NCBI GenBank assembly: GCA_041497675.1
Contig: JBGQGY010000052.1
Location: forward strand, 1 to 22,884
DNA: 22,884 nucleotides
DNA from: a bacterium
GTDB lineage: Bacteria; Sysuimicrobiota; Sysuimicrobiia; Sysuimicrobiales; Humicultoraceae
Direction of reading: 5' to 3'
Numbering within the stretch: position 1 is the first letter of the stretch; the number at the start of each line of letters is the position of its first letter. Position numbers and translations under genes: made by a program. The notes beneath the pieces were generated by a model. It was not told where the DNA came from, did no database searches, and saw only the letters and a program-made list of their open reading frames with translations. This document shows positions 767 to 19,636 of the stretch, in pieces.

Positions 767-1693
767 ATGAAAATTGCGGTTATCGGCGGCGGGCCCGGTG
801 GGTTCTTCTTCGCGGTCTTGATGAAGCGGGCCGATCCCTCGCATGACATCACCGTCTTCGAGCGCAACGCGCCGGGAGCCACATTTGGGTTCGGCGTGGT
901 CTTCCCCGAGCGCTCGATGCAGTATCTGCGCGACGCCGACCCGCATGTACACGCCGCGTTCGTGCAAACCATGATCCACTGGGACGCGCTCGAGTACCGG
1001 CACCGGGGCCGCATCCTCCGGTGCGGCGGGCACGTCTTCTCAGGGATCGCCCGCATGGATCTCCTGCGGATCTTACAGACACAGGCAGGTCGGCTCGGTG
1101 TGAATCTATGCTTTCACCAAGAGATCGCTAGTCTCTCCAACATATCTGGATACGATCTCATCGTGGCGGCCGACGGCATCCACAGCCTGGCCCGCCGCGA
1201 ACTGGCGGACCGGTTCCGTCCCTCAACCGATGTCGGAAAAAGCGAATACATCTGGCTCGGAATTTCCCCAACCGTATCGTGGCCACCCAATCCCCGTTTG
1301 ACGGTGCCGGCCTGATCATTACCGATCCCGGTGCCCCGATCTTCCTGCAACGGTCGTTCCTCGCGGCATGTGGCTGCAGCTGCCCAACGCCGCCCAGAAG
1401 CCCCTCGACAACATTGAGCTGTCAAACACGGCGGTGCTCCTGTTGGATGGCATCGCCGCCGCCAATCTCGACCTCGTCGAATCTGCCCGCGCGGCGTGGC
1501 CGCCCGCGACCCTGAACGCGCACGCGAGGCGCACGCGCACGCGAGCGATCTGATCCGCAACCTGACGGGAGTGCCGACGATGCTGCTTGGCGGCGACTAC
1601 AACGTGGGTGACGTCAACGCGTTGATCCTGGCCGGTCGGGCCGATCTCTGCGAGTGGCCGCGTCTGGCCTGGTCGGGGTGGCGACCTCACTAA
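767..1693 (+). pseudogene. Eroded bifunctional salicylyl-CoA 5-hydroxylase / 2-aminobenzoyl-CoA monooxygenase-reductase (FAD monooxygenase + OYE domain) remnant
   Basis: 767-1261 reads MKIAVIGGGPGG...FERN...TFGFGVVF...DLIVAADGIHS...YIWLG and stops at 1315. OYE-domain relics follow in three other segments/frames: FPNRIV...GAGLIIT (1264+), RAAWPP (about 1490), and SDLIRNLTGVPTM...VNALILAGRADLC (to 1693). Confidence 0.8.
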
Positions 1694-2888
1694 AATCCGC
1701 CCGCTCCGCCGCGAGTGCCACCGCTGCGCCGGCGACCAGCGCCCAGAACGGTGCGGCGATCCGAAAGAGCACGAGCCCGGAGACGGTCACCAGAAATGCC
1801 GCGAGCGCCCCCAAGCGGAAACGCCCGCCGAACGCCTGCTGGAAGAACTGCGTCATGGGAGGCAACAGCGCCAGACCCCCGAGGACATCGACCAGCGCGC
1901 GCGGCACGATGCGCGTGATCGCCGTGGCAGCCGGCGCGAGCAGCCCGGTGGCAATCCATACGACCCCCAAGACGACACTGGCCGCGTAGCGACCCTGCGG
2001 CGGTCCCGACGCGGGCCCCGAGACGATCGCGGTGGACGGACCCGCCAGACACGCCGAGTGGCCCCCCGCCACCGCGGACACCACCGACCCGAGCCCCGCC
2101 GCCACCGTGAGCCCACTGACCGGCGGGCGATACCCGGCCGCCCAGAGCGCCGCGAACCCCTGGACGTTCTGCACGGCGATGACCATCAGCACCAGGGGGA
2201 TCACGAGTTCCACCGAGGCCGTGACCGAAAACGCGGGCACAACCACGTGAGGGCGCGCCAGCGTGAACGTCATGGCACTCCAGTCGGCCTGGCCGAGCAC
2301 GGTGACCGTCACCAGTCCCGCTACCAGCGCCGTCAGCACCGGTGGAACGCGCCGCAGACCCGGCACTGCCGACGTTGCGAAGAACGCCGCCACCGTCACG
2401 CCGCACAGCAGCGGCGCCTGCTGCAGACCCCTCGGGATTGCAAGCACGAAGGGCAACAGCACGCCCGCCACCATGCCCATCATGATCGGGATGGGCAACC
2501 GCGCGGTCGCGCGGCCGATAAGACCGGTCGCCCCCAGCAACAGCACCGCCGCGCCGGTGAGCCAGTAGGTGCCGACCACCTGATCGAAGGGCAGGTGCGC
2601 CAGGGCCGCGCCCACGAGCACAACGCCCGGGATCGTGTACGCGCCGACGATCGGCAGTCGGTAGCGCAGGCTGAGGACGATGCTCAACACGCCGCCGACG
2701 ACGCTAACCGACAGGATCCACGACACCGCCGCGGCCTCGGGAAGATTCGCCTGCCGGGCCGCCGACAACGTGATCAGCAACGGGCTGATATTCCACAAGC
2801 CGGCAACCGCGGCGCTGGCAACCCCGCCGGCAGTGAGCACGCGCGGAAGGTCGCGGAGGTTGCGAAGGAAGCCGGGATTGTGCGCCAT
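1614..2888 (-). CDS. benE: Benzoate/H+ symporter BenE family transporter
   Basis: About 424 aa, multi-TM; SWILS..LSLRYRLPIVGAYTIPG, MGMVAGVLLPF, QNVQGFAAL..AGYRPP, FLVTVSG...IAAPFWAL. ATG at 2888 overlaps the upstream TGA (GTG at 2891 is an alternative start). Confidence 0.85.
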   Translation of the reverse strand: MAHNPGFLRNLRDLPRVLTAGGVASAAVAGLWNISPLLITLSAARQANLPEAAAVSWILSVSVVGGVLSIVLSLRYRLPIVGAYTIPGVVLVGAALAHLPFDQVVGTYWLTGAAVLLLGATGLIGRATARLPIPIMMGMVAGVLLPFVLAIPRGLQQAPLLCGVTVAAFFATSAVPGLRRVPPVLTALVAGLVTVTVLGQADWSAMTFTLARPHVVVPAFSVTASVELVIPLVLMVIAVQNVQGFAALWAAGYRPPVSGLTVAAGLGSVVSAVAGGHSACLAGPSTAIVSGPASGPPQGRYAASVVLGVVWIATGLLAPAATAITRIVPRALVDVLGGLALLPPMTQFFQQAFGGRFRLGALAAFLVTVSGLVLFRIAAPFWALVAGAAVALAAERADFSEVATPTRPDAATRRDRPDRPGSTR

Positions 2889-3616
2889 CACAGGATGACG
2901 CTCGCCATGCCCAGCACGCCCACCAGTGCAAGATACGCGAGCACAACCGTGTCAAAGGCCTGTGGGGCGAGTCGTCCTCCCAGATACGAGCCGGTCACGA
3001 ATCCCAGCAAGACTCCCGGTGTCAACTTCCAGGCGAGTGCCATCGTTGAAGGTGAAACCGCGCCGCCGGCCGCCATGACTACGATGCTCGCCAAGGTGGC
3101 CAGGAAGACGAACGCCACCATGTTGGCGCGAAATCGGTCCTTTGGGCAACCGCGTGCAATCAGGTAGAGCACCACCGGCGGGCCGTTGAGACTCGTGCTT
3201 GTGGAGAGAAAGCCGCTCACCGCTCCCACAGTGACCACGTCGAGGCGCCCGGCCGACCGACGGGGACGCACACGGAACAACATCAGCGCCGCAAACAGCG
3301 TGGTCAGCCCGGCGACGAGCGCCTTCAGCGCGCGTGCGTCGGCGTGCTGCAGCAGCAGAAGTCCCCCCGGCATCCCGACCACACTGGCAAGACACATCGG
3401 ACGCATCAGCGTCCAGTCGATCGCCCGACGGAGGTCGGCGTGCAGCAACAGGGCGCCACTGGCAAGCAATCCGAGCAGGAGGGTCAGGACCACCACATCC
3501 CGCGGAGGGTACAGGAACGTCAGCAACGGGGTACTCAGCAGGTTGAATCCAAACCCGGTTGCCGCCGTCCCCATTGCAGATAACAGCACAATGAGAAGGG
3601 CGAGGTACTCTTGCAC
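2888..3616 (-). CDS. Sulfite exporter TauE/SafE (TSUP) family membrane protein
   Basis: 242 aa hydrophobic protein; TGFGFNLLSTPLL and GAVSGFL..STSLNGPPVVLYL internal repeat motifs. Confidence 0.88.
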   Translation of the reverse strand: MQEYLALLIVLLSAMGTAATGFGFNLLSTPLLTFLYPPRDVVVLTLLLGLLASGALLLHADLRRAIDWTLMRPMCLASVVGMPGGLLLLQHADARALKALVAGLTTLFAALMLFRVRPRRSAGRLDVVTVGAVSGFLSTSTSLNGPPVVLYLIARGCPKDRFRANMVAFVFLATLASIVVMAAGGAVSPSTMALAWKLTPGVLLGFVTGSYLGGRLAPQAFDTVVLAYLALVGVLGMASVIL

Positions 3617-3628
3617 TACATGATACCG

Positions 3629-4405
3629 TCAGGCCAACTTGTTGAACTGCGGCTTGCGCTTCTCGACGAAGGCTTTCACGCCCTCGTGTCCGTCGGGGCT
3701 GCGAAACAGACTCTCCAGCATCTCGCGCTCGATGCGTAGCGCGTCGTCTAGCGGGCGGTCGCGCCCCTGTTGCACCGCGAGCTTGATCGCGCCGATGGCG
3801 CTCGCCGCGCCGTCGACGAGCCCCTGTACGTAGGCGCGCGTCTGCGTCTCGAGTTGATCGGCTGGGAACAACCGGTCCAGAATGCCCATCGCGAAGGCGT
3901 CCTTCGGCGACAGGCGCCGTCCCGTCACCATCAGGTCCAGCGCGCGGTTCCACCCGATCAGTCGAGGCAGCCGCTGCGTGCCGCCGTTGCCGGGCAGCAG
4001 CCCGAGCGTCACCTCGGGCACGCCGAGATAATATTCGCCTTCGGCCCCGAAGCGAAGGTCGCAGGCGAGCGCGATCTCGAGTCCGCCCCCGAGGGCGTGC
4101 CCACGAATCTGCGCAACAAACACTTTGGGGATCCCCGCAATCCGGCCCAACGTTTGGTGCGCCAGCCGGCACATCGCCATGTTTTGATCGGCCGAGTTCT
4201 CGCTGAACGCCTTGATGTCCGCGCCCCCACAAAAGAACCGGTCGAGGGCGCTGCGCACGATCACAGCCCTGGCAGCGCCGTCGGCAGCCGCCGCATTGAT
4301 GGCCGTCTGTAACTCGTCCATGAACCCGTAATCATAACTGTTCGCAGGTGGGCGGTTGAGCGTAATGAGTCCAATCGCGTCCTCACGTGCGTACTCGACC
4401 GGCAT
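3629..4405 (-). CDS. Enoyl-CoA hydratase/isomerase (crotonase) family protein, BoxC N-domain-like; candidate ring-cleaving epoxide/oxepin-CoA hydrolase
   Basis: LNRPPANSYD, FCGGADI, GHALGGGLEIALACDLR, PEVTLGLLPGNGGTQRLPR, EGVKAFVEKRKP. Both crotonase Glu residues present. GGAGG RBS. Confidence 0.92.
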   Translation of the reverse strand: MPVEYAREDAIGLITLNRPPANSYDYGFMDELQTAINAAAADGAARAVIVRSALDRFFCGGADIKAFSENSADQNMAMCRLAHQTLGRIAGIPKVFVAQIRGHALGGGLEIALACDLRFGAEGEYYLGVPEVTLGLLPGNGGTQRLPRLIGWNRALDLMVTGRRLSPKDAFAMGILDRLFPADQLETQTRAYVQGLVDGAASAIGAIKLAVQQGRDRPLDDALRIEREMLESLFRSPDGHEGVKAFVEKRKPQFNKLA

Positions 4406-4414
4406 GGCAGCCTC

Positions 4415-5866
4415 CTACTCTAGATCTCCGACCACAACCGACTTCGGCTCCACGTAGTAGTCCATCGCCTCGGGCCCGTGCTCGCGCCCGATCCCCGACG
4501 CTTTGACGCCTCCAAAAGGCAGTTCATCATACCCGTAGTGGATCTGGTTCACCCAGGTCATCCCGGCCTCCAGATCCTGCGCGGCCTTGTAGATCCATCG
4601 GACATTGTATGTCCAAATCGACGATCCCAGACCGTAGATCGAATCGTTGGCCATCGCAATCGCGTCGTCTATCCCCTTCACCTTGAAGACCGGCAGCAGC
4701 GGGCCAAACGTCTCTTCCTTGACGGCGCGGCTGTCGTGCGGCGCCCCCTCGATCACCGTCGGGGTGAAGAAGAAGCCGCGATGGCGTCCCTCGGGCACGC
4801 GGCCGCCGTAAGCGATGCGCGCGCCGCGGCCGACGGCGTCCTGGATCTGGTCGATGATCTCCTGGCGCTGCCCCGCGGAATGGATCGGCCCCACGCGGAT
4901 CTTGGGCCGCTCGGCCTTCACCCAGCCTTCGCCAGGTTCGTACCGCGCCACGCCGGCCAGCAGTTTTTCCATGAACTTATCGTAGACGTCCTCGAACACA
5001 TATAACCGTTTACATGCGAGACATGCTTGCCCCATATTCCAGAACCGCCCAATGAGCACGCCGCGCACCGCCTTGTCCAAATCCGCATCGGAACAGACGA
5101 TGGTCGGATCGGACCCGCCCAGCTCGAGGGTGATGCGTTTGAACTGCGGGCCGGCCACCTCCATGATCCGGCGACCGGTGCCGCTTTCACCCGTGAAGGC
5201 GACACGGCGCACGTCTGGATGCGCCGCCAGCGCCTCGCCGACCACGCGGCCAGGCCCCGTGATCACGTTGAGCACGCCCGGCGGCAGACCGCCTTCATTG
5301 AGCAGGGCGATCACCCGCAGCGTCGCCAGCGGCGTGGTGCTCGCGGGTTTCACGACAACGGTGTTTCCTGCCGAGAGCGCCGGACCGATCTTCGTGCCCA
5401 TCAGCGTCAGCGGGAAGTTCCACGGGACGATTGCCGCGCACACGCCGATCGGCCGAGGGATGACCATTCCATAGGCCTTGCCCAATGAGGACGGTAGTGC
5501 AGTATACGCGCCGCGCATCTTGCTGGCCAGTTCGGTGTAAAACTCCACGCCGTGGACGAAGTGGTTGATCTCGCCCAGCGCTTCGTGCATGGGCTTGCCC
5601 TGCTCGCGCACGAGCAGATCGGCGACCTCCTGCACCGCCGCACGTACTTTCGCCAGACCCTCGCGGATCTTGTGCGCGCGCTCTTCGGCGTCGGTCTTCG
5701 CCCAACCGGGAAACGCCTTGCGCGCGGCTGCCACCGCGGCGTCGACGTCCTCGGGCCCGGCCTTTGGCACCGAATCGACCACTTCTTCGGTCGCCGGATT
5801 GATGACGGGCATCTGCGCGCCCGACTTCGCCGCGACCGCCTCGCCGTTGATCAACTGCATCGCCAT
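4415..5866 (-). CDS. NAD(P)-dependent aldehyde dehydrogenase (candidate ring-cleavage semialdehyde-CoA dehydrogenase)
   Basis: PWNFP, KPASTTP, FTGE..TG, LELGG, GQAC catalytic Cys, EETFGP, PFGGVKASGIGRE. GGAGG RBS. Confidence 0.95.
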   Translation of the reverse strand: MAMQLINGEAVAAKSGAQMPVINPATEEVVDSVPKAGPEDVDAAVAAARKAFPGWAKTDAEERAHKIREGLAKVRAAVQEVADLLVREQGKPMHEALGEINHFVHGVEFYTELASKMRGAYTALPSSLGKAYGMVIPRPIGVCAAIVPWNFPLTLMGTKIGPALSAGNTVVVKPASTTPLATLRVIALLNEGGLPPGVLNVITGPGRVVGEALAAHPDVRRVAFTGESGTGRRIMEVAGPQFKRITLELGGSDPTIVCSDADLDKAVRGVLIGRFWNMGQACLACKRLYVFEDVYDKFMEKLLAGVARYEPGEGWVKAERPKIRVGPIHSAGQRQEIIDQIQDAVGRGARIAYGGRVPEGRHRGFFFTPTVIEGAPHDSRAVKEETFGPLLPVFKVKGIDDAIAMANDSIYGLGSSIWTYNVRWIYKAAQDLEAGMTWVNQIHYGYDELPFGGVKASGIGREHGPEAMDYYVEPKSVVVGDLE

Positions 5867-5879
5867 GATGTCCCCTCCG

Positions 5880-6065
5880 CTATTTCCGTATCCGCTCGAA
5901 CGGGCTCTTGCAGGCCAGACACATATACTGTTCGGACATCAACTGCGCCCCAAAGGCCGCGATACGCTCCACGCGCGCAGACCCGCACCAGGGGCACAGG
6001 AGGACGTCTCTGTCCCCGCTTACGCGGTCGTCGCGGCGTCCAGGCGGCGTTGGAGTTGATTCCAT
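5880..6065 (-). CDS. Stand-alone PaaD C-terminal zinc-ribbon protein
   Basis: CPWCGS...FGAQLMSEQYMCLACKSPFERIRK resembles the PaaD C-terminus (CPxCxS..FG..YxCxxCxEPFxxxK). Start uncertain (ATG 6065 or GTG 6074, both within the paaC 3' end). Confidence 0.78.
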   Translation of the reverse strand: MESTPTPPGRRDDRVSGDRDVLLCPWCGSARVERIAAFGAQLMSEQYMCLACKSPFERIRK

Positions 6066-6796
6066 CGATCCCACGGCAGGTCGTCATACTCCCAGGCGCC
6101 GGCTTCTAAGTTCCACCGCACCGGGAGCCTCACGCCGACTTCCAGCAGCAGGGGCGCCACGCGCACCAGATACCGCTGTCGAAGGTCTTCATTGGCCCGG
6201 CTCAAGATGCCCTCGGCAACGAGCGCCTCGACGCCAGCTTCCCCGGGAGGCCCAAACCAACACAGCATCTCCGGCAGCACTTCATCCACACGTCGCTGGA
6301 GCGCCGAGGCCCCCTGCGGCGTGGCGACGATGCGGCGGGTCAGGCTCTCGGCATAGCCCATGTGCGAGCGCTCTTCTTCCAGCGCGCGGCGGATGCGGCT
6401 CGCCAGCGACTCGAACCGCGCGTCGGCCAGCGCGTCGAACATGGTGTTCACGGCGGTGTCGATCAGCACGCAGGCCGCCACCACGTGGGACCAGCTTGGG
6501 AAGGGCCGATCGAGAAACACGGCGCTGTAGCGGCGCTCGCGGTCGCCCTCACGCTCGAGCGGCACCGGGTGGTTGGGCCAGGGCAGCTCTTCGAGCAACG
6601 GATAAATGGCGCGCGAGTGGCCGAGTTCTTCCTGCGCGATCGCGGCGCAGGCAACCGCGGCCTCGAGAAACGGCGCGCCCGGCGCCCACTCCGAGATCCG
6701 TCGTCCCAAGAAGTATTTGGTATCGGCCAGGACCACGATGAGATTGACCAGGGGCCCGAGCGCCCGCTCGTGCATCGAGACGGTGGCCTTGCTCAC
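6020..6796 (-). CDS. paaC: Aryl-CoA epoxidase structural subunit, PaaC-like (ferritin-like PaaA/PaaC family)
   Basis: LADTKYFLGRRISEWAPGAPFLE, QEELGHSR, EEERSH, WFG. GTG start overlaps the upstream TGA. Confidence 0.82.
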   Translation of the reverse strand: MSKATVSMHERALGPLVNLIVVLADTKYFLGRRISEWAPGAPFLEAAVACAAIAQEELGHSRAIYPLLEELPWPNHPVPLEREGDRERRYSAVFLDRPFPSWSHVVAACVLIDTAVNTMFDALADARFESLASRIRRALEEERSHMGYAESLTRRIVATPQGASALQRRVDEVLPEMLCWFGPPGEAGVEALVAEGILSRANEDLRQRYLVRVAPLLLEVGVRLPVRWNLEAGAWEYDDLPWDRWNQLQRRLDAATTA

Positions 6797-7005
6797 GGCT
6801 GCGGCTCGATGACCCAGTGGACCGACCCCGCCGGCGCCAGCACCATCTCCAGCCAGTCGCCGCCGAATCGCTGCGTGGCCAGCGCGGCCGGCTCCTCGCC
6901 CGAGCCAACCGCGATGATGCCCTGATAGGCCAACGATTCGGTGTAGGCCCGGCGGGCGAGCACCAGAAACCGGCGCGAACGTGGGTCCACGGCGGCGGGT
7001 CCCAT
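6793..7005 (-). CDS. Second PaaB-like small protein (70 aa)
   Basis: ATG at 7005 overlaps the upstream TGA. FLVLARRAYTESLAYQGII...WLEMVLAP...WVIEP aligns by eye with the adjacent PaaB-like YEVFAARAEGAEPVKNVGAV...WKEMFVIP...HVIRP. Confidence 0.65.
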   Translation of the reverse strand: MGPAAVDPRSRRFLVLARRAYTESLAYQGIIAVGSGEEPAALATQRFGGDWLEMVLAPAGSVHWVIEPQP

Positions 7006-7202
7006 CAGGCGGGCCGGATGACGTGGATCAGCGCGCTGCGGGGGATGACAAACATCTCTTTCCAGCGCCACTCATCGTAGAGTTTGTGCGCGAAGATCGC
7101 CGCCTCGCGCGAACTGCGGGCGCGGACCGCGCCCACGTTCTTGACCGGCTCCGCCCCTTCGGCCCGCGCCGCAAACACCTCATAGATCTCTTCGCCCTGC
7201 AC
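7005..7202 (-). CDS. paaB: PaaB-like small subunit of aryl-CoA epoxidase (65 aa)
   Basis: YEVF...VGAVRA...A...Y...FVIP pattern of PaaB. GTG start directly abuts the paaD TAA. Confidence 0.75.
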   Translation of the reverse strand: MQGEEIYEVFAARAEGAEPVKNVGAVRARSSREAAIFAHKLYDEWRWKEMFVIPRSALIHVIRPA

Positions 7203-8442: not shown

Positions 8443-8509
8443 CGCCGTTTCTCCTCTCGCGACTCCCTCACTCAGAACATTGGCTTCCGTCGCCGGGAGC
8501 CCTCCAGGA

Positions 8510-10266: not shown

Positions 10267-10273
10267 CAGGGAC

Positions 10274-12088: not shown

Positions 12089-12114
12089 CCCGCCTCGGAG
12101 CGGCCGCCGTGCGG

Positions 12115-13329
12115 CTAGCGCTGTTCCCACGCCGGCGCCGGAAACTGGAACGGCGCGGTCGCGAACTCTTTGGGCCAGACCAGCTCCTGCTTGCCTCGTT
12201 GCCACTGGAGGAACACGACCGTGACCACGCCGGTGCCATCTGCCCGGAAGCGTACCTGGCCTTCCACAGTCATCATGTTGGTCGCGGCCATCGCGTCGCG
12301 GATCTTCGCGCGGTCCAGCGTACCGGCGCGCGCGATCGCGTCGGCCAGGATCTGGACGGCGGCGTACGAGGGCCCGGTGAGCACATCACCGGGGCGTCCA
12401 AACGCACGCTGGTGCTTGTCATTCAGTTCTTTCACGCCGGGGAACCGCATGGCGTTGTGCCAGCCGGGCGCCAGCATGACGTAGTCGCCGTCCTTGCCCA
12501 GGTTCTGGCTCCACACCACGGCGTCGGCCGCGCGGATGAGCATGTACATCTTGGCGTTGAACGCCAACTGCTTCATCTGGCGGACTAGGTTCAACCCGTC
12601 CGGCGGCGTGGGGACACCGAACACGGCCTCGGCACCGGCGGCTTTGGCGCGCAGGATGTTGTCCGAGAAGTCGCGCGCGCCGATCGCGTACTCTTCAATG
12701 GCGACGGCGCTATAGCCGAACTCCTTCGCGCGCGTCGCCCACAGCCCGCCAATTTCCTCGCCCCAGTCGGTCCGTTCCTTGAAGATGGCGATCCGCTTCG
12801 GCCGCTGCGCATCGGGGAGCGTCCCGTTCAAGAATAGGTAGGTTTCCTTGACAAGGTCGGGGGATTTCGGGAATGGGCTGAATAGATATTTGAAGCCCTG
12901 CTGGTGGATCTTGTGTAGGGCGAACGCCACGCCGAGGTAGGGGACCTTGTTCTTCTCGGCGATTGACGCGGCCGCGGCGTGCAGGTCGCTGCCAAACCCA
13001 CCCAGATAGGCTGTGACCCGATCGCTCGCGAACAGCGTCTCGAGCCTGGCCACGGTCTTAATGGGGTCGGACTCGTCATCCAGCAGGACCAGTGCCAGCG
13101 GCAGCTTCTTATTGAACTCCGGCACCATCACGCCGCCGGCGCGGTTGATGTCCTCGATCGCAAACTCGTAGCCGGCCTTCACCTGCGCGCCGCCCGCCGC
13201 GTAGCGTCCGGTCAGGGGCACCACTGCGCCCACCTTGATGCTCAAGGGCGCCTGCGCCACGCTCGGACTCGCGCCCAGTGTCATCCATGCCAGCACGGCG
13301 ACGATCACCAGCGCGATCACTGTCTTCAT
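12115..13329 (-). CDS. LivK-type (PBP1) ABC substrate-binding protein, probably for an aromatic acid
   Basis: Signal peptide MKTVIALVIVAVLAWMTLGASPSVAQA; IKVGAVVPLTGRYA, INRAGG, DDESDP, QWQRGKQELVWP. Confidence 0.9.
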   Translation of the reverse strand: MKTVIALVIVAVLAWMTLGASPSVAQAPLSIKVGAVVPLTGRYAAGGAQVKAGYEFAIEDINRAGGVMVPEFNKKLPLALVLLDDESDPIKTVARLETLFASDRVTAYLGGFGSDLHAAAASIAEKNKVPYLGVAFALHKIHQQGFKYLFSPFPKSPDLVKETYLFLNGTLPDAQRPKRIAIFKERTDWGEEIGGLWATRAKEFGYSAVAIEEYAIGARDFSDNILRAKAAGAEAVFGVPTPPDGLNLVRQMKQLAFNAKMYMLIRAADAVVWSQNLGKDGDYVMLAPGWHNAMRFPGVKELNDKHQRAFGRPGDVLTGPSYAAVQILADAIARAGTLDRAKIRDAMAATNMMTVEGQVRFRADGTGVVTVVFLQWQRGKQELVWPKEFATAPFQFPAPAWEQR

Positions 13330-13341: not shown

Positions 13342-13488
13342 CTAGTCGATCCTGGACTCGTCGCGATACATCACGCGTGCGCGTTCGTTTCTGATCCACT
13401 CATCGATCTGTTCGTCGGTCGGCCCATTGGCCGGAGTGAACCGGCTGACCCACCACACGCTGTAGCCGAGCGCCGCCGCGGGTGGCAT
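13342..13488 (-). CDS. Small hypothetical protein (48 aa)
   Basis: Manual translation MPPAAALGYSVWWVSRFTPANGPTDEQIDEWIRNERARVMYRDESRID*. ATG overlaps the ligase TGA and TAG abuts the livK RBS. Below the ORF-track size cutoff. Confidence 0.5.
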   Translation of the reverse strand: MPPAAALGYSVWWVSRFTPANGPTDEQIDEWIRNERARVMYRDESRID

Positions 13489-14831
13489 CACTGCGTCCCC
13501 TCCGCGTGCACCACGCGCCTGGCCTTCAATTCGAAACGCGGCAGCGTGCCGGCCGCGACCGCGGCCGTCTCGACCCGTAGTCCGACCGTATGGCGGACAT
13601 CGTCGCTGACCGCCGCCACCGTCCGGTCGCGCATCTCGCGGCCGTGCGTCGCCTCGTCGATTTCCAGCACGATCCGGATCTCGTGCATCTCGTGCCGCCT
13701 GGTCACCTCGATGCGGAACTCATCCACGGTCGGGTGGCGCCGCACGACGTCTTCGATGACGCTCGGAAACACGTTGACCCCGCGCACGATGAGCATGTCG
13801 TCGGCTCGGCCGAGGATACCGCCTTCGGCGCGCACGAACGTGCGGCCGCAGGCGCACGGCGAGGGGTTGAGACGCACCAGGTCGCCGGTCCGGTAGCGGA
13901 TCGCGGGTGACCCCCAGCGTCCCAGGTTCGTGACAACGAGCTCACCTTGCCCATCCCGAGCGGGCCTGCCGGTGGCGGGATCGATGACGTCGATGATAAA
14001 CTCGCTCTCGTTGAAGTGCAGACCGCCCGGCTGCACGATACACTCGAACCCCAGGGCGCCCACCTCGGTCATCCCACAGTGGTCGAAGCACTTCGCGCCC
14101 CAGGATTCCTCGATGCGGCGCTTCGTCCCTGGGATGTTTGCGCCCGGTTCTCCCGCGTGGATCGTGACCCGGATCGACGTAGTCGCAGGATCGATCCCCT
14201 GCTCTCTCGCGACCTGCGCCAAGCGCAGCGCGTAGGATGGCGTGCAGACCAGCACGGTGGTGCTGGCTTCGATGAGGGTTCGGAGCCGCAGGACCGAATC
14301 CTGGCCCCCGCCGGGGACGGTGAGTGCGCCAAGCCGCGTGGCGGCGTCGAATCCCGCCCAGAAGCCAATAAACGGGCCAAACGAGAAGGGAAAGAGGATC
14401 CGGTCTTCGGGGACGACCCCCGCCGCCCGGTACACGAACTCCCAACAGCGGGTCCACCAGTCCCATGAGTCGGGCGTATCCAACCAGCGCAGCGGCCGGC
14501 CGGTGGTCCCGGAGGTCATGTGATAACGATTATAACGTTCGACAGGATAGGTCAGGATGGTGCCAAACGGCGGGTGGGCCTGCTGATCGTCGACCAATTC
14601 CTGTTTCGTCGTCAAGGGGAGCCGGCGAAAGTCGTCCAGCGTTCGAATGGACGTCACGTCGCCGGCTCCGGCGGCCGCCCACTTACGCCGGTAGAAGACG
14701 TTATGCGCAGCGACTTCCGCCAACACGGCCCGGAGGCGCTCGACCTGCAGCCCGTCAAGCGCCGCGCGGTCGACCGTCTCCAGTTCGCGGTCAAAGAACG
14801 GGACCTCGGGGGGCGCGGCGCGGGCGCTCAT
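13488..14831 (-). CDS. paaK: Phenylacetate-CoA ligase (PaaK) family aryl-CoA ligase
   Basis: TSGTTGRP, CTPSYAL, AGEPG, GMTE, RYRTGD, GRADDMLIVRGVNVFPS, LPRFELKARR. Start 14831 (GAGG upstream) preferred over 14873. Confidence 0.88.
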   Translation of the reverse strand: MSARAAPPEVPFFDRELETVDRAALDGLQVERLRAVLAEVAAHNVFYRRKWAAAGAGDVTSIRTLDDFRRLPLTTKQELVDDQQAHPPFGTILTYPVERYNRYHMTSGTTGRPLRWLDTPDSWDWWTRCWEFVYRAAGVVPEDRILFPFSFGPFIGFWAGFDAATRLGALTVPGGGQDSVLRLRTLIEASTTVLVCTPSYALRLAQVAREQGIDPATTSIRVTIHAGEPGANIPGTKRRIEESWGAKCFDHCGMTEVGALGFECIVQPGGLHFNESEFIIDVIDPATGRPARDGQGELVVTNLGRWGSPAIRYRTGDLVRLNPSPCACGRTFVRAEGGILGRADDMLIVRGVNVFPSVIEDVVRRHPTVDEFRIEVTRRHEMHEIRIVLEIDEATHGREMRDRTVAAVSDDVRHTVGLRVETAAVAAGTLPRFELKARRVVHAEGTQ

Positions 14832-14844
14832 CCGGCGGATATCC

Positions 14845-15858
14845 TCATATGTGGGACGGAGGTTCTTCCGCATGGATGCCGGCGAGTTCCTTCAATGCCC
14901 GGCCGACGTACACGCGGACCATCTGTTTGCGGTAGCGCAGCGTGAGGTCGGTATTGTCGAGGGGTTTGGCCGGCTTGAAGGCCGCGTCGGCGGCCGCGTC
15001 GATCACCCCGGCGTCGAGCCTCTGCCCAATCAGCGCCTGCTCCGCGGCGCGCGCCCGCAGCGGCATCGACGCGACGGCGCCCAGGATCAGCCGCGCGTCG
15101 GCCACTGTTCCGCCGGCGTCGAGCCGCACCGCCGCGGCCACGCCGAGAATCGGAAAGTCGATGCTGCCGCGGCGCCGAAGTTTCCAGTATGTCGCCCGCC
15201 ACCCGTCGGCCGGCGGCACCTGGATGTCCACCAGGATCTCGTCGGGTCGTTTGCCGAGATAGGCGATCCCGTCATCCCGATATAGCTCGGCCGCGGTGAT
15301 GACGCGCTCGCCGGCCGCGCTCACCAAACGCACCTTCGCGTCGAGAGCGATGACGACCGGCGCCAGGTCCGAGGACGAGATGGCCCAGCACTTCGAGCCG
15401 CCCGGCGCCACCCAGCACACGTCGCCGTCCTTCTTCATGCAGAAGCTGATCGACTTCCGCCACCAGTACGGCATGTTGTAATAGTTGCAGCGCGTGTCGA
15501 CCAGCAGGTTGCCGCCGACCGTGCCCATGTGGCGGATCTGGGGATTTGAGATCAACTCCGCGGCGCGTCCGAGCACCGGGTACCACGCGGCCGCCAATGG
15601 GTGCGCGGTCAGGTGCCGCAGCACCGTCCCCGCACCGATCGTCAACCCGTCGCGCTCGTTGCCCCGGACACCCTGCAGTTCGCGCAACCCGCGCAGCCCC
15701 ACCAACACCTTTGGCTCGAACTGCCGGCGCTTCATGTTGGGGTAGAGGTCGGTCCCACCGGCGACGGCCATCGCACTGGGGCCGTGATCCGCCAGCATCC
15801 GCGCGGCCTCGTCGAGCGCGCGAGGCGCCAGATACGTGAACGCCGGCAAACGCATCAT
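14845..15858 (-). CDS. hcrB: 4-hydroxybenzoyl-CoA reductase beta-type FAD subunit with [4Fe-4S] insertion
   Basis: AGGTDL, QIRHMGTVGGNL, four-Cys insertion DTRCNYYN..WWR...FCMKKDGDVCWVAPGGSKC, KLRRRGSIDFP. Confidence 0.85.
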   Translation of the reverse strand: MMRLPAFTYLAPRALDEAARMLADHGPSAMAVAGGTDLYPNMKRRQFEPKVLVGLRGLRELQGVRGNERDGLTIGAGTVLRHLTAHPLAAAWYPVLGRAAELISNPQIRHMGTVGGNLLVDTRCNYYNMPYWWRKSISFCMKKDGDVCWVAPGGSKCWAISSSDLAPVVIALDAKVRLVSAAGERVITAAELYRDDGIAYLGKRPDEILVDIQVPPADGWRATYWKLRRRGSIDFPILGVAAAVRLDAGGTVADARLILGAVASMPLRARAAEQALIGQRLDAGVIDAAADAAFKPAKPLDNTDLTLRYRKQMVRVYVGRALKELAGIHAEEPPSHI

Positions 15859-18239
15859 CAGACCGTCACCTTGTGCCAGCCGGGCGGAAGCTCGACGCGG
15901 ATCGGGTCTTTGAACCGGATCGACGGCACCCGAGTGGGTCCGACCCGGCCGCTCCCGCCTTTGCGCACGTCGGCCAGCGCGGCCAGGATCTTGTCGGGCG
16001 TGATGGGGATCTCGTCGATCGCGATGCCCAGGGCGTCGCGCACGGCGTTGGCGACCGCCGGGATCACGGGCAGCAGCGGCCCTTGACCGACTTCCTTAGC
16101 GCCGAAGGGTCCCTCCGGATCGACCGACTCCACGATGAACGAGTGGATCTCCGGCATCTCCAACGTGGTCGGGCTCTTGTACTCCAGCATCGACGGAAAC
16201 TTGTGCACGCCGCGCCGGAAGACTTGCTCTTCCATTAAGACCTCTCCAAGACCCATGTACACGCTGCCCTCGATCTGTCCTTCGACGAGCAGCGGGTTGA
16301 TGGCACGGCCGACGTCGTGCGCGATCCAGACCTTCTCCACCTTCACCTCGCCGCTTTCCGGGTCGCACCGCACCTCGGCGACGCAGGCGGTGTAGGAGTA
16401 AGCAGGTGACGGTCCGACCCCCGACCCCTTGTACGGCCCCGATAGTTTCGGCGGGCGATAGCTGCCCGTCGTCGCCAGCAGGCCAACGCGCGCCTCGGCC
16501 GCGCGGACCGCCTCAGGCCAGGTGAGCCCGCGGTCGGGTGTCTCCTTCACGTAGATGCGGCGACCTTCCGCCACGAGGAGGTCCGGTGGGACCTCGAGTC
16601 TTTCCGCCACCGCCTTGAAGATGATCTCCCGCATTTTGGTGGCGGCTTCGAGCGCCGCGTTCCCGGCCATGAAGGTGACGCGGCTGGAATACGACCCGAG
16701 ATCGATAGGCGTGAGATCGGTGTCGGCCGTCACGAGCTTGATGTCGGACGGCTGGATCCCAAGCACCTCCGCGACGGTGTAGGCCAGCACCGAATCCGAG
16801 CCCTGACCGATATCGATCGCCATCGAGTACACTGTGACCCCGCCGCCACGGTCGATCTTGATCTGGACCTCTGATTGCGGCATGTCGTTCCAGTAGATCG
16901 GCAGCCCCGCGCCACACATGTACGCGCCGACCGCGACGCCGACCCCGCGCCCGCGGGGCAACCGGCCGCGCTTTTGGTGAAAACCCGAGGCGTCCACCAC
17001 GCGGTCGAGACACTCGCGCAACCCGCACGACGTGATGCGCAGGTAGTTGACCGTCATCGAGTTTGGCTCGACCAGGTTGCGGAGCCGCAGCGTCACGGGA
17101 TCGATGCCCAAATCCGCGGCAGCCTTGTCGAGCTGGCATTCCATGGCGTAACGCGGCTGCGGCGTGCCGTGGCCGCGTTTTGGCCCGCACGGCGGCTTGT
17201 TGGTGAAAACGCGGAGCCCCTCGAACTTGTAACGGGGGATCTTGTACGTCGTCGTCTGCAGCGCTCCAGTGTAGTAGGTGCTCGCAACCCCGTACGAACC
17301 GTACGCCCCGCCGTCCAAAAACGTCTTGAAGTGCATCGCGGTGATGCGGCCTTGGTGGCTAAACCCCGTCTTGACCCACATCAGCGTCGGGTGCCGGCCG
17401 CGGTGGATGTAAAACACTTCTTCCCGGGTGCACGTGATCTTGACGGGCCGCCCGGTGATCATCGAGAGTTTGGCCGCGGCGATCTCGTGCGAGAATGGAT
17501 CGGTCTTCCCGCCAAACCCGCCGCCGACCGGCGTCGCGATGACGCGGATCTGGCTGGCCGGGCGCTCCAGGACCTTCTCGAGCGCGCGGTGGACGTAGTG
17601 CGGCGTCTGTGTCGAGGTCCAGACGGTCAGCTTGCCGTCGGGCTCGTAGGAGGCCACGGCCGAGTGTTGCTCCATGGGGAGATGGGTGTTGCCTTCGAAA
17701 AAGAAGATGTCTTCGCGGACATGATCAGCCTCGCGAAACCCCTCCTCGACGTCGCCAAACTCCAGCGCCACCATCTTGTGGATGTTGGGCCCGTCGCCGT
17801 AGTCCTGGATGCGGACGTCCTCGCGTTTCAGCGCTTCGTCGATCGACATGATGGCGGGCAGCGGCTCGTACACGACGTCGATGAGCTCCAGCGCGCGATC
17901 GGCGGTCTCTTCGTCGATCGCTGCCACCGCCGCCACCGGATCGCCGACGTAGCGCACTTTGTGGATGGCCAGCGTCTCTTCATCCTGGCTGACGGGGAGG
18001 ATGCCAAACTTGATCGGGAGCGCCGTGCCGGTCAAGACCGCTACGACCCCGGGCAGCGCTTCCGCTCGGCTGGTATCGATCGATGTGATCAGGGCGTGCG
18101 CGTGGGTGCTGCGCAACAGCCGACCGTGCAGCATCCTCGGCAAATTGAGATCGTCCGCAAACTTTGTTTGCCCCGTGCACTTGCCCATCCCGTCGACGCG
18201 GGGCAGCGGTTTGCCGATGACCGAGAAGGTCCCGTGCAT
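15858..18239 (-). CDS. hcrA: 4-hydroxybenzoyl-CoA reductase alpha-type molybdopterin subunit (xanthine oxidase family)
   Basis: 793 aa; TQTPH, GGGFGGK, RGRHP, GGAYGSYG, PPCGPKRGHG, DIGQGS, GSYSSRVTFM, GPFGAKE. Confidence 0.85.
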   Translation of the reverse strand: MHGTFSVIGKPLPRVDGMGKCTGQTKFADDLNLPRMLHGRLLRSTHAHALITSIDTSRAEALPGVVAVLTGTALPIKFGILPVSQDEETLAIHKVRYVGDPVAAVAAIDEETADRALELIDVVYEPLPAIMSIDEALKREDVRIQDYGDGPNIHKMVALEFGDVEEGFREADHVREDIFFFEGNTHLPMEQHSAVASYEPDGKLTVWTSTQTPHYVHRALEKVLERPASQIRVIATPVGGGFGGKTDPFSHEIAAAKLSMITGRPVKITCTREEVFYIHRGRHPTLMWVKTGFSHQGRITAMHFKTFLDGGAYGSYGVASTYYTGALQTTTYKIPRYKFEGLRVFTNKPPCGPKRGHGTPQPRYAMECQLDKAAADLGIDPVTLRLRNLVEPNSMTVNYLRITSCGLRECLDRVVDASGFHQKRGRLPRGRGVGVAVGAYMCGAGLPIYWNDMPQSEVQIKIDRGGGVTVYSMAIDIGQGSDSVLAYTVAEVLGIQPSDIKLVTADTDLTPIDLGSYSSRVTFMAGNAALEAATKMREIIFKAVAERLEVPPDLLVAEGRRIYVKETPDRGLTWPEAVRAAEARVGLLATTGSYRPPKLSGPYKGSGVGPSPAYSYTACVAEVRCDPESGEVKVEKVWIAHDVGRAINPLLVEGQIEGSVYMGLGEVLMEEQVFRRGVHKFPSMLEYKSPTTLEMPEIHSFIVESVDPEGPFGAKEVGQGPLLPVIPAVANAVRDALGIAIDEIPITPDKILAALADVRKGGSGRVGPTRVPSIRFKDPIRVELPPGWHKVTV

Positions 18240-18240
18240 G

Positions 18241-18741
18241 CTAGCGCCCCCCGCCCGGCGTCCCGTTGCCGTTGCGCGCGCGGGCGGCCGCCAGTTCGAC
18301 GGCCTCGAAGATCTTCACGTATCCGGTGCACCGGCAGAGATTGCCCGCCAGCGCCTGCGCGATCCGCTCCCGCGTGGGATCGGGCTCCGCGTCGAGCAGC
18401 GCCTTGGCCGCCAGGAGAATCCCCGGCGTGCAATACCCGCACTGCGCCGCGCCAAGCTCGGTGAAGGTCATCTGTAGGTGGTGCGGCCGGCTCCCCTCCG
18501 CCAAACCTTCGACCGTCGTGATCTCGCGATTCTGCACCTCGACCGGCAGCGTCAGACACGAGAGCCACGGCTCGCCATCGATCAGCACCGTGCATGTGCC
18601 GCACTCGCCGAGCTCGCAGCCATGTTTGGTCCCGGTGAGGTTCATCTCTTCGCGCAAGACTTCGAGCAGCGTCTTGTGGATGGGCGCCGCAACTTCGTGG
18701 GTCTCCCCGTTCACGCGCAGCGTGAGCAGCGTCTTGGGCAT
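18241..18741 (-). CDS. hcrC: 2x[2Fe-2S] small subunit (HcrC/CoxS type)
   Basis: GTKHGCELGECGTCTV..SCL, QCGYCTPG, NLCRCTGY. ATG at 18741 overlaps the iclR TAA. Confidence 0.9.
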   Translation of the reverse strand: MPKTLLTLRVNGETHEVAAPIHKTLLEVLREEMNLTGTKHGCELGECGTCTVLIDGEPWLSCLTLPVEVQNREITTVEGLAEGSRPHHLQMTFTELGAAQCGYCTPGILLAAKALLDAEPDPTRERIAQALAGNLCRCTGYVKIFEAVELAAARARNGNGTPGGGR

Positions 18742-19580
18742 TAGACGCCGCCCGCCGCGGCCGCTTTGTCTCTCGCCCCGGCCCATGCCGCTCCGGTGCC
18801 GCCCAACCGCCGCGAGATATCTTGCGCCGCCTGCTTCACGGCCAACCCCGCGGCCTGGAGACGCGTCTCCGTAAGCCGCGCGCCGTACCCGACGATGGTC
18901 ACGGTGGCCGAGGGTCGTCCCCGCCCATCGAGCACGGGCGATGATGCGGCGCGGACACCGGGTAAATACTCTTCGCGATCGGCAGCGTACCCGAGCGTCC
19001 GGACCCGCGTCAATTCCTTGCGATAGCGACGTGGATCGGTGATCGACCTGGGCGTGAACGCCGGCAGCGTCCGGCCGCTCAACAGGCGGGTCACCTCGTC
19101 GTCAGGCAGCCAGGCCAGGAACGCCTTCGCCACGGCGCCCGCAAACGGCGGCAGCCGGTGCCCGATCGGCGCCGTCACCTTCAACTGGTGATCGGACTCC
19201 ACGCGGTCGACGATCACCGCGCCCTGATCGTTCGGGACGTGCAGCACCGCTGTCTCGCCAATGGCATCCCGAAGTCGCACGAGAAACGGCCGCGCGACCT
19301 GCCGCAGATCGAGGCCCCGCAGCACGGCGTTGCCCAGATCGAGCAGCGCGTAGCCCAAGCGGTAGACCCGCGACTCGTCGTCGCGTTCGACAAACCCGTA
19401 GTGCTCGAGGGTGCTGAGGAGTTCGGAGAGCGTGCTCTTGCTGACGCCGAGCGCGCGGCTGAGGTCAGACAGGCGGCGCGGCCCACCGTCCGCGCTCAGG
19501 GCCTGGAGGACGAGGACGGTCCGTTCGATGGCAGGCACGAGGCGCCGGGACCGCGTGGCAGAATCCTCCATGTTCGCCAT
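18741..19580 (-). CDS. IclR family transcriptional regulator
   Basis: N-terminal wHTH (LSDLSRALGVSKSTLSELLSTLEHYGFV..YRLG), GETAVL, GAVAKAFLA, LPAFTPRSITD, GYAADREEY. Start 19580 or 19571. Confidence 0.95.
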   Translation of the reverse strand: MANMEDSATRSRRLVPAIERTVLVLQALSADGGPRRLSDLSRALGVSKSTLSELLSTLEHYGFVERDDESRVYRLGYALLDLGNAVLRGLDLRQVARPFLVRLRDAIGETAVLHVPNDQGAVIVDRVESDHQLKVTAPIGHRLPPFAGAVAKAFLAWLPDDEVTRLLSGRTLPAFTPRSITDPRRYRKELTRVRTLGYAADREEYLPGVRAASSPVLDGRGRPSATVTIVGYGARLTETRLQAAGLAVKQAAQDISRRLGGTGAAWAGARDKAAAAGGV

Positions 19581-19607
19581 TTCGAACAGTGTTCGGTATG
19601 TAGGACA
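19571..19607. promoter_or_regulatory. Tandem IclR-type operators: TGTTCG-N6-CGAACA (19571-19588) and TGTTCG-N6-AGGACA (19590-19607)
   Basis: One perfect and one imperfect inverted repeat between the -10 box and the iclR start; GTTCG half-sites resemble PcaR/PobR-type boxes. Confidence 0.7.
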
Positions 19608-19636
19608 AACCTACCTGCCTGATCTTACCGTGTCAA
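19608..19636 (-). promoter_or_regulatory. Sigma70-type promoter for the catabolic cluster: TTGACA-N17-TAGGTT
   Basis: Minus-strand TTGACA at 19636-19631, 17-bp spacer, TAGGTT at 19613-19608. Confidence 0.78.

Follow-up and report, generated by a model that had tools for sequence, protein, structure and literature searches.

In a 22,884-nt stretch of DNA from an uncultured, hot-spring-type bacterium (contig JBGQGY010000052.1 of assembly GCA_041497675.1; G+C ∼66%), referred to here as the window, we found a long operon in which genes for a molybdenum enzyme resembling the 4-hydroxybenzoyl-coenzyme A (CoA) reductase HcrCAB are followed by genes for an oxygenase related to Paa, the phenylacetyl-CoA epoxidase. 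Our preferred reading, in which our confidence is evenly balanced, is that the operon forms one catabolic unit that would convert a para-substituted benzoate to its CoA ester and then to benzoyl-CoA, which would be dearomatised with O2 and cleaved. The most likely substrate is 4-hydroxybenzoate. The host is probably facultatively anaerobic and close to Candidatus Sysuimicrobiota; a facultatively anaerobic way of life is ascribed to the phylum of its nearest named relative in the available text of PMC11604079. The core of this pathway had been put forward in an original prediction made from the window alone, and three comparative observations now speak for it: a four-Cys loop and overall closeness to the solved 4-hydroxybenzoyl-CoA reductase (4-HBCR; PDB 1RM6), the pairing of the oxygenase module with benzoate-CoA-ligase (BCL) family and BenE genes in other genomes, and the co-location of hcr and paa-like genes in two clades. 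The case is thus a comparative one.

The route can be laid out from homology and gene context. The acid would enter through a Liv-type ATP-binding cassette (ABC) importer, and benzoate itself through a BenE transporter, whose place in the operon fits benzoate as a second entry. A PaaK-family ligase would make the aryl-CoA thioester, and the HcrCAB-like enzyme (Mo, flavin adenine dinucleotide (FAD), Fe-S) would remove the para substituent reductively to give benzoyl-CoA, a step backed by the homology to 4-HBCR and by the [4Fe-4S] loop. The Paa-like complex (PaaA-, two PaaB- and PaaC-like subunits, with DUF59 and zinc-ribbon helpers) would then oxygenate and dearomatise benzoyl-CoA with O2, using a reductase presumably encoded elsewhere. 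A crotonase-family enzyme would open the ring hydrolytically and an aldehyde dehydrogenase (ALDH) would oxidise the resulting aldehyde, steps analogous in function, not in sequence, to those of BoxC/BoxD or the two halves of PaaZ. An IclR regulator would control the whole unit. The Paa-like module itself seems to be a widespread hub for benzoyl-CoA-type substrates that does without BoxAB, and in most genomes a benzoate-CoA ligase would feed it. In the window and in Ardenticatenaceae, an iclR-hcrCAB-ligase block would replace benzoate-CoA ligase as the feeder of the oxygenase; with such a replacement, the product of the Hcr enzyme would be the oxygenase substrate, benzoyl-CoA.

Operon layout and linkage of the two halves

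All operon genes lie on the minus strand, where the chain of open reading frames (ORFs) runs unbroken from 19580 to 1614 and comprises 21 tightly packed ORFs and one ORF of 48 aa. The order is iclR, hcrCAB-like, PaaK-family ligase, Liv-type importer, oxygenase set, ALDH, crotonase, TauE and BenE, and the oxygenase set itself reads PaaA, DUF59, PaaB, PaaB, PaaC and Zn-ribbon (Pfam, NCBIfam). Two of the ORFs (13342–13488 and 11708–12205) are gene remnants. Every gene of the original prediction was recovered on this strand between 19580 and 1614. Pfam families were matched by 17 of the 20 minus-strand ORFs submitted: IclR_C/HTH_IclR for the regulator; Fer2_2+Fer2, Ald_Xan_dh_C+MoCoBD_1+MoCoBD_2 and FAD_binding_5+CO_deh_flav_C for the molybdenum enzyme; AMP-binding_C_2 for the ligase; Peripla_BP_6, two ABC_tran and two BPD_transp_2 for the importer; and two PaaA_PaaC, FeS_assembly_P, Aldedh, ECH_1, TauE and BenE from the oxygenase to the 3′ end. 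The other three submitted ORFs (11708–12205, 6793–7071 and 6549–6908) had no Pfam match, and ORF 6549–6908, which overlaps the PaaC-like gene out of frame, was rejected as spurious. The scanned window ORFs gave no Pfam or NCBIfam match to Bcr/Bam, Box, the PaaZ hot-dog domain or ring-cleavage dioxygenases, as had also been noted beforehand.

Once plausible starts are chosen, the junctions are overlaps (such as TGATG between the two PaaB-like genes) or short gaps, and the widest true gap is the 67 bp between livM and paaA (8443–8509). The interval between the ligase and the binding-protein gene measures 158 bp and is bridged only by the 48-aa ORF 13342–13488, so the predicted run of about 22 ORFs with gaps of at most 67 bp holds if this small ORF is counted and fails if it is left out. 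Such tight packing suggests co-transcription. Terminator-like sites were not enriched (9 found, 10.0 expected); three lie inside livM and none in the inter-module gaps 13342–13487 and 8443–8509.

The first operon gene encodes the IclR-family regulator (18741–19580; Pfam IclR_C, 144 bits, plus HTH_IclR), whose best NCBIfam models, BhcR (174; cut-off 350) and PcaR/PcaU/PobR (143; cut-off 285), both remained below cut-off. Its stop codon overlaps the hcrC start (TAATG), and the iclR-hcrC order recurs in two Ardenticatenaceae loci (L064 and L075). The intergenic region 5′ of iclR (19581–19673), shared with a divergent gene starting at 19674, would house the control elements. Inspection by eye found TTGACA (19636–19631) and two inverted repeats with 5-bp arms, GTAGG-N5-CCTAC (19614–19600) and CGAAC-N3-GTTCG (19595–19583), whereas a consensus promoter scan made no call in this region. 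A single promoter/operator for the whole operon, as originally proposed, is plausible, and the scan speaks neither for nor against a single transcript.

To place the operon in a wider context, we used a species-level genome collection, in which 512 stretches encode a relative of the PaaA-like protein; the best 80 loci were fetched and searched with the window proteins. Many of these loci are short contigs, and counts of parts are minimums. An HcrA-like gene (at least 60% identity) lies beside the oxygenase module in six of the 80 (L003, L004, L007, L022, L064 and L075), two of them cut by a contig end. The Hcr-type ligase occurs in eight, namely these six plus L001 and L065, both of which end inside the ligase. 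Hcr-type and BCL-type ligases, found in 8 and 35 loci respectively, were never found together (0/80).

In a tree of PaaA-like proteins (84 rows; quick IQ-TREE run with SH-aLRT, i.e. Shimodaira–Hasegawa-like approximate likelihood-ratio, support; its root, on the very long E. coli branch, is unreliable), the Hcr-linked rows formed two separate groups and the BCL-linked rows, including other Sysuimicrobiota (L008, L015), filled the remainder. A 9-row clade holds the window and Candidatus Fervidifonticultor secundus (Sysuimicrobiota), and three Ardenticatenaceae loci are set off from all other rows by a branch of 0.61 with 100% support. The junctions differ as well: the Ardenticatenaceae order is iclR-hcrCAB-ligase-paaA (L064, L075), whereas in the window's clade the importer lies between ligase and paaA. 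The hcr and paa-like genes have stayed adjacent even though the proteins are now only 58–69% identical, and the fusion persists across relatives whose ligases are 71–80% identical. A further HcrB-like gene (56%) was seen at the edge of L027, from a BCL-poor, Gaiellales-type group of Actinomycetes; it falls within 18207–20925, at a distance of ∼9 kb from the module, and has genes for a phenol-hydroxylase-type flavoprotein and a MaoC dehydratase as neighbours.

These linkage data bear on the best-surviving alternative, which we nevertheless judge unlikely: that recombination joined two halves that work separately, Hcr and ligase feeding an anaerobic benzoyl-CoA reductase encoded elsewhere in the absence of O2, and the Paa-like module and BenE dealing with benzoate or another acid in its presence, with the ligase as the only shared part. 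4-HBCR is oxygen-sensitive, which favours such a separation. The two remnants (13342–13488 and 11708–12205) show that the cluster has been rearranged, the Hcr–ligase pair seems to be widespread without the oxygenase, and no distant HcrA cluster coincides in longest-contig size with a listed PaaA-like cluster. The facultatively anaerobic life described for the nearest named phylum (available text of PMC11604079) would also allow the halves to serve at different times. Yet the genes are translationally coupled or closely spaced behind one upstream region, with no terminator-like site in the inter-module gaps; the fusion is kept at 71–80% ligase identity and recurs with a different junction in Ardenticatenaceae; and the window holds no alternative benzoate-CoA ligase (Pfam, NCBIfam).

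The HcrCAB-like enzyme and its CoA ligase

The three xanthine-oxidase-family subunits (Mo, FAD and 2×[2Fe-2S]; Pfam) are encoded together: the HcrC-like [2Fe-2S] subunit at 18241–18786 (Fer2_2+Fer2; likely start ATG at 18741), the HcrA-like molybdopterin subunit of 793 aa at 15858–18239 (Pfam, NCBIfam, PDB) and the HcrB-like FAD subunit at 14845–15858 (Pfam, alignment with 1RM6_B). For all three, the best NCBIfam model was that of 4-HBCR: HcrA scored 889 against TIGR03194 (cut-off 994.55; next family XdhA, 534), HcrB 274 against TIGR03195 (cut-off 404.55) and HcrC 180 against TIGR03193, the gamma subunit (cut-off 257.8). Among solved structures, HcrA matched 1RM6_A, the Thauera aromatica 4-HBCR, at 648 bits over residues 3–758, with the next entry at 313.

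A hallmark of 4-HBCR is an insertion of ∼40 residues with four Cys in the FAD subunit, which holds an extra [4Fe-4S] cluster. HcrB aligned with 1RM6_B (191 bits) with all four Cys of the inserted [4Fe-4S] loop in register, and the insertion is visible in its FAD_binding_5 match, where 211 residues cover 168 profile positions. The title of the 4-HBCR structure paper, as cited in the available text of PMC11760930, ties the extra [4Fe-4S] cluster to inverted electron flow. By its four-Cys loop and its closeness to 1RM6, the enzyme is thus built like a reductive dehydroxylase and not like a hydroxylase.

The neighbouring ligase gene (13488–14873; Pfam AMP-binding_C_2) encodes a PaaK-family aryl/acyl-CoA ligase that is 34% identical to E. 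coli PaaK and reached 243–251 bits with the PaaK models (cut-offs 646/700; NCBIfam). It adjoins hcrB in all six loci that show hcrA. Beyond these loci, the longest-contig size of an HcrA cluster coincided with that of a listed ligase cluster in 18 of the 120 HcrA clusters listed, and the coinciding pairs reach down to ∼70% (HcrA) and 61–63% (ligase) identity to the window. This indicates that Hcr and this ligase clade probably travel together well beyond the loci studied, a pairing that fits a ligase making the CoA ester on which Hcr acts.

Two insertions were seen at the hcrB–ligase junction in relatives. A Meth_synt_2 gene, resembling cobalamin-independent methionine synthase, lies between hcrB and the ligase in L022 (2344–3861) and L003 (∼2600–3860), and stands in pieces after the binding protein in L004 (5489–6675); as pure speculation, it might supply an O-demethylation (methyl-transfer) step for methoxybenzoates. 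In L004, a MazE-antitoxin/PIN-domain pair occupies 2250–2943 between hcrB and the ligase.

The group that the molybdenum enzyme would remove from the para position may be OH, NH2 or another substituent. An operon of the same architecture with a different Mo-enzyme chemistry is an improbable alternative, for which several observations can be cited. Scores below the 4-HBCR equivalog cut-offs for all three subunits are what one would expect of a paralogue, but they may just reflect distance from the proteobacterial seed sequences of the models. The cluster contains a nitroreductase remnant, and the gene is intact in relatives. In Desulfatiglans anilini, according to the available text of PMC7500099, hcr-like genes were abundant only on aniline/4-aminobenzoate and were proposed to serve 4-aminobenzoyl-CoA deamination; relatives of 4-HBCR are also described as dehydroxylating other phenols, the urolithins (PMC11760930, available text). 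Nothing in the window, however, is specific to an amino or catechol substrate.

The Paa-like oxygenase family and its neighbourhoods

The oxygenase begins with its PaaA-like diiron catalytic subunit (7507–8442; Pfam PaaA_PaaC, 200 bits), which is 28% identical to E. coli PaaA and scored 106 against TIGR02156 (cut-off 280). Positions E43, E73, H76, D127, E157 and H160, which we take to be the diiron ligands, do not vary among 12 members of the family and have aligned counterparts in E. coli PaaA. The next gene (7203–7514; FeS_assembly_P, 77 bits) encodes a DUF59 protein that stands for the N-terminal half of PaaD (E. coli PaaD, 34% identical; paad_haloarch 88, cut-off 180), and the zinc-ribbon protein at 5880–6074 (PF23451 Zn_ribbon_PaaD, 48 bits) corresponds to its C-terminal half. 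Between them lie two PaaB-like genes, to which E. coli PaaB gave no BLAST match among the small ORFs. The first (7005–7202; 65 aa) is a remote PaaB relative recognised by its profile (hhalign probability 92%, E 6.6e-7, with E. coli PaaB). The second (6793–7071; likely start 7005) matched the profile of the first at 98% and E. coli PaaB directly at 12%, so its homology to PaaB shows only through the first. The PaaC-like subunit (6020–6796; PaaA_PaaC, 117 bits; TIGR02158 80, cut-off 133) keeps five of the six diiron ligand positions, with the first Glu replaced by Lys, whereas E. coli PaaC has lost three; it may not be purely structural.

The NCBIfam equivalog cut-offs for PaaA, PaaC and PaaD were thus all missed (106/280, 80/133 and 64/108), and the linked phenylacetate context is missing from the window: the ligase does not reach the PaaK cut-offs, the only crotonase is a generic one and a hot-dog domain was not found. 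Relatives of the PaaA-like protein are numerous (4373 database proteins at E ≤ 0.001), and the best 120 are 67–91% identical. By these sequence measures, the oxygenase is a paralogous family and not canonical PaaABCDE.

Among the 80 loci, the PaaA-like gene (80) is accompanied by DUF59 in 78, PaaB1 in 75, PaaB2 in 47, the PaaC-like gene in 72 and the Zn ribbon in 71; an ALDH orthologue (at least 55% identity) is present in 52 and a crotonase orthologue (at least 50%) in 50. The window module is 64–95% identical to family members, and its own ALDH and crotonase are typical of the family. In L077 (Rubrobacter marinus), L008 and L024, the neighbours include members of the TIGR02262 benzoate-CoA-ligase family (542–633 bits; cut-off 375) together with PaaH-/PaaF-like genes and BenE or an aromatic-acid transporter of the major facilitator superfamily. 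With ligases of this type as queries, a BCL-family gene was found in the fetched stretch of 35 of the 80 loci (L019, with 28–29% identity only, was excluded). Of the 35 loci with at least 20 kb, 20 carried BCL, three hcr and 12 neither, and no PaaK with a canonical score was found beside the oxygenase family in the loci scanned. Genes of a beta-oxidation-like lower pathway, missing from the window, occur near the module in some relatives, PaaH-like in 13 of the 80 genome loci and PaaJ-like in eight loci, one of them a Thermus plasmid stretch.

Plasmids extend this picture. On the Thermus thermophilus plasmids pHB5018c and pTF24b, paaA_2 and paaC_2 stand beside a 'benzoate-CoA ligase family protein', a thiolase and a PaaI thioesterase, and the Thermus PaaA-like protein is 74% identical to the window's; on a haloarchaeal plasmid, the module's neighbours are genes for an acyl-CoA synthetase of 546 aa and a 2Fe-2S ferredoxin. 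The chromosome of T. thermophilus HB8 carries its own, separate paaA-paaB-paaC-paaD-paaZ operon and also paaI and paaK, all controlled by PaaR and induced as a phenylacetate regulon (PMC6651687, available text). The label 'paaA_2' suggests a second copy in the plasmid-bearing strains; if these share the HB8 paa set, the Paa-like family is a paralogue beside the phenylacetate system. Canonical PaaABCE, moreover, is described as neither using benzoyl-CoA nor escaping inhibition by it (PMC4498308, available text). From the BCL neighbours, the separate Thermus paa set and this inhibition, we infer that the module probably acts on benzoyl-CoA or a close analogue.

This evidence also tells against a (hydroxy)phenylacetate pathway, which we consider decidedly improbable, in which a PaaK-family ligase would make (4-hydroxy)phenylacetyl-CoA, the Paa-like complex would be a divergent phenylacetyl-CoA epoxidase, ALDH and crotonase would stand for a split PaaZ, and Hcr would dehydroxylate 4-hydroxyphenylacetyl-CoA or be a passenger. 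Some other bacteria do have PaaZ split into an ALDH and a crotonase. The oxygenase subunits match Paa families only, the best ligase matches are PaaK models, relatives of the ligase are named 'phenylacetate-CoA ligase' in their sources, and a PaaK-family gene lies 5–6 kb from the module in L037 and L039. But the ligase is far from those models (243–251 against 646/700) and from E. coli PaaK (34%), the family sits beside BCL genes in 35/80 loci and beside a canonical-scoring PaaK in none scanned, and the window has neither a second crotonase for PaaG nor a hot-dog domain. The 4-HBCR mechanism, in addition, depends on conjugation between the ring and the thioester carbonyl, and phenylacetyl-CoA has no such conjugation. 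Thermus HB8, finally, keeps its canonical paa/paaK set apart (PMC6651687, available text).

Highly improbable is an oxidative molybdenum enzyme, hydroxylating an aryl- or heteroaryl-CoA like furoyl-CoA dehydrogenase or supplying the oxygenase with electrons in place of the absent PaaE, given the conserved four-Cys [4Fe-4S] loop and its link to inverted electron flow (title cited in PMC11760930, available text), the 648 bits with 4-HBCR as against at most 313 with any hydroxylase of known structure, and best plasmid-borne HcrA relatives, in a plasmid search, of just 37–39% identity. As BCL-type clusters lack both Hcr and PaaE, the oxygenase reductase appears to be unlinked in general, and Hcr is unlikely to be the missing one. 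Possible electron suppliers were seen near the module in two relatives, a 2Fe-2S ferredoxin in Halalkalicoccus (L085, 10910–11191) and, in a metagenome-assembled genome of Solirubrobacteraceae (L023, 16887–18275), a flavoprotein of the ferredoxin-reductase type (Pyr_redox_2 + Reductase_C).

The ring-opening end of the pathway was assessed through the two genes behind the oxygenase. The NAD(P)-dependent ALDH (4415–5866; Pfam Aldedh, 519 bits) reached no NCBIfam equivalog among the best 25 families listed. The crotonase-family enzyme, our proposed ring hydrolase (3629–4405; ECH_1, 186 bits), was best matched by models of plain enoyl-CoA hydratases (PaaG 131/345, oxepin_alt 126/300; top PDB entry 2PPY); BoxC (2W3P) was not among its PDB matches at E ≤ 1e-25, and Box models were absent from the matches of any window ORF (for crotonase and ALDH, from the best 25 families listed). 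The 'Box-like ring cleavage' of the original prediction thus survives as a functional analogy, but not as a likeness of the crotonase, a generic enoyl-CoA hydratase, to BoxC.

Several points weigh against one catabolic unit running through benzoyl-CoA. To judge from these matches, crotonase and ALDH are generic and not BoxC/BoxD-like, and E. coli PaaE found no counterpart by tblastn in either the window or the 84 other loci (E ≤ 1e-8, coverage of 50% or more). The HcrA-, HcrB- and HcrC-like subunits all fall short of the NCBIfam 4-HBCR equivalog cut-offs, and no low-potential electron donor for Hcr was found in the window or near the module. The oxygen sensitivity of 4-HBCR fits poorly with co-expression with an oxygenase, and its usual partner is a ligase of the benzoate-CoA-ligase family, whereas that of the window is a PaaK-family enzyme. 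Because TIGR02262 models a subfamily, the acid activated by the BCL-type neighbours could be a substituted benzoate. As to linkage, co-location of the hcr and paa-like halves recurs in two separated clades with different junctions, but 72 of the 80 loci, among them L027 with its HcrB-like gene at the edge, carry no hcr block (neither ligase nor HcrA), and a single old fusion followed by transfer, instead of two events, may lie behind the two PaaA clades. Within the window's own clade, L005 and L006 have no hcr within 10 kb upstream and carry glyoxalase-family and nitroreductase genes where the window has hcr and ligase. A ligase cluster (P0273; 73% identical) coincides in longest-contig size with the contig of L005, however, and the ligase may lie just beyond the 10 kb fetched for that locus.

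More tentatively, and as something we hold possible rather than probable, the Paa-like complex would be a second, BoxAB-independent class of benzoyl-CoA oxygenase with interchangeable feeders, and the co-transcribed Hcr enzyme, at work in the same cells under exposure to O2, would be O2-tolerant or protected. Such a hub would span Actinomycetota, Chloroflexota, Deinococcota, Acidobacteriota, Sysuimicrobiota and haloarchaea, fed by benzoate-CoA ligase, by the iclR-hcrCAB-ligase block and perhaps by indoleacetate-type genes in Thermoleophilia. In the Thermoleophilia loci L037 and L041, the flanks of the module carry hydantoinase A/B, a family III CoA-transferase, a methylmalonyl-CoA-mutase-like protein, a PaaK-family ligase (interrupted in L037), a cyclase and an Asp/Glu racemase. 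These neighbours resemble the iaa genes of anaerobic indoleacetate degradation, a route that leads to (2-amino)benzoyl-CoA, and may be a third kind of feeder. In BCL-type clusters, some 30 of the 80 loci have an Amidohydro_2 (PF04909) gene directly 5′ of the one for the PaaA-like protein (e.g. L077, 8994–9854; L024, 3906–4913); it is absent from the window.

The operon can be compared with several known systems. Like Thauera aromatica HcrCAB (PDB 1RM6/1SB3), the best solved relative of both large subunits, the molybdenum enzyme is encoded by three adjacent genes (Mo/FAD/2×[2Fe-2S]) and has the four-Cys loop in its FAD subunit; unlike it, the subunits score below cut-off, the partner is a PaaK-family ligase, and the operon is shared with an O2-dependent oxygenase rather than an anaerobic benzoyl-CoA reductase pathway. 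With E. coli paa the operon shares PaaA/B/C/D equivalents, the diiron ligand positions, the logic of a CoA-ester substrate and a downstream ALDH and crotonase. It departs from E. coli paa in its 28% PaaA identity, two PaaB-like genes, a PaaD split into DUF59 and Zn ribbon, a PaaC-like subunit keeping 5/6 ligand positions, the lack of PaaE, the PaaG/PaaZ pair and a canonical PaaK, and the BCL-family gene as the usual neighbour of its family. The proposed chemistry, from benzoyl-CoA through a diiron epoxidase and a crotonase-family hydrolase to an ALDH, is like that of Box in Azoarcus/Aromatoleum (PMC4498308, available text), but homologues of BoxA, BoxB or BoxC were not detected in the window and the likeness is a functional analogy only. 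Uncharacterised counterparts are the Thermus paaA_2 plasmid, Rubrobacter, Gaiellales and haloarchaeal clusters, which have the same oxygenase module, ALDH, crotonase and Liv-type importer; unlike the window, they carry BCL-family, thiolase and Amidohydro_2 genes and a further ALDH and crotonase, and no hcrCAB. The parts come from known families, and the architecture resembles the Box and Paa hybrid pathways while, by sequence, it is a member of neither, because defining features of each were tested for and not found.

In textbooks, bacteria handle aromatics at low oxygen by CoA-dependent hybrid routes, with Box serving for benzoate and Paa for phenylacetate, and Mo-dependent 4-hydroxybenzoyl-CoA dehydroxylation serves in genomes as a marker for the anaerobic degradation of aromatics. 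To our knowledge, enzymes of the 4-HBCR type have so far been known only from anaerobic metabolism. The comparison suggests that the unusual point is the joining, in one transcript, of an oxygen-sensitive type of reductase and an oxygenase. A literature search of incomplete coverage, judged on listings and abstracts, found no description of a Paa-like benzoyl-CoA oxygenase or an hcr-epoxidase operon, and papers on Sysuimicrobiota (CSP1-3) made no mention of benzo-, phenylacet-, aromatic or hydroxybenzoyl terms. If the proposal is true, a third, widespread oxygenase system for benzoyl-CoA-type substrates is annotated everywhere as phenylacetate catabolism, and benzoate and lignin-monomer turnover is misassigned in Actinomycetota, Chloroflexota, Thermus and haloarchaea. 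The 'anaerobic' Hcr marker could then be wired directly to an O2-requiring step, which would bear on how the marker is read in metagenomes and on the oxygen tolerance of the enzyme class. Since cultivated T. thermophilus strains carry the module on plasmids, its function should lend itself to genetic tests.

Transporters, gene remnants and flanking genes

The Liv-type importer consists of a periplasmic substrate-binding protein (12115–13329; Peripla_BP_6, 174 bits), two ABC ATPases resembling LivG (10983–11711) and LivF (10274–10990; both Pfam, NCBIfam) and two ABC permeases resembling LivH (9403–10449; BPD_transp_2; likely start 10266) and LivM (8510–9406; Pfam, NCBIfam). Both remnants lie beside the binding-protein gene. 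The 48-aa ORF 13342–13488 is the C-terminal remnant of a nitroreductase-family gene, with 69–73% identity over 33–35 aa to the end of the nitroreductase gene 5′ of the binding protein in L005 and L006; that gene is intact in these two loci and present in L027. ORF 11708–12205 (165 aa; no Pfam or NCBIfam match) is a probably non-functional remnant of an NMT1-like binding-protein gene: residues 58–165 are 54% identical to the C-terminal part of such a gene in L005 and L006, and residues 105–165 are 85% identical to L002, while L001 has no remnant. In L002, L005 and L006, a 3.7-kb insert between the binding protein and livG contains an ABC ATPase, a BPD_transp_1 permease, an Amidohydro_2 gene and the NMT1-like binding protein.

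The operon closes with two further transporter genes. The TauE/SafE-family anion transporter (2888–3616; TauE, 104 bits) has counterparts in only L001 and L002 among the 80 loci, and in L003 and L022 benE directly follows the crotonase gene; the TauE gene is a recent addition to the cluster. The last gene encodes a BenE-family benzoate transporter (1614–2891; BenE, 238 bits; TIGR00843 191, cut-off 203), and L001, L002, L003 and L022 likewise have benE 3′ of the module, while Rubrobacter-type loci also contain the gene.

On either side of the operon, the plus strand carries other genes. The divergent neighbours at 19674–22884 (+), unrelated to the operon, encode a PMT_2 glycosyltransferase, a DUF2330 protein and a cupredoxin-like protein. 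At the other end, ORF 689–1315 (+; 208 aa) matches the first 168 of 768 profile positions of NF006101 (191 bits), a bifunctional salicylyl-CoA 5-hydroxylase/oxidoreductase; it is a seemingly truncated gene convergent with benE, and a 74% identical stretch follows benE in L001.

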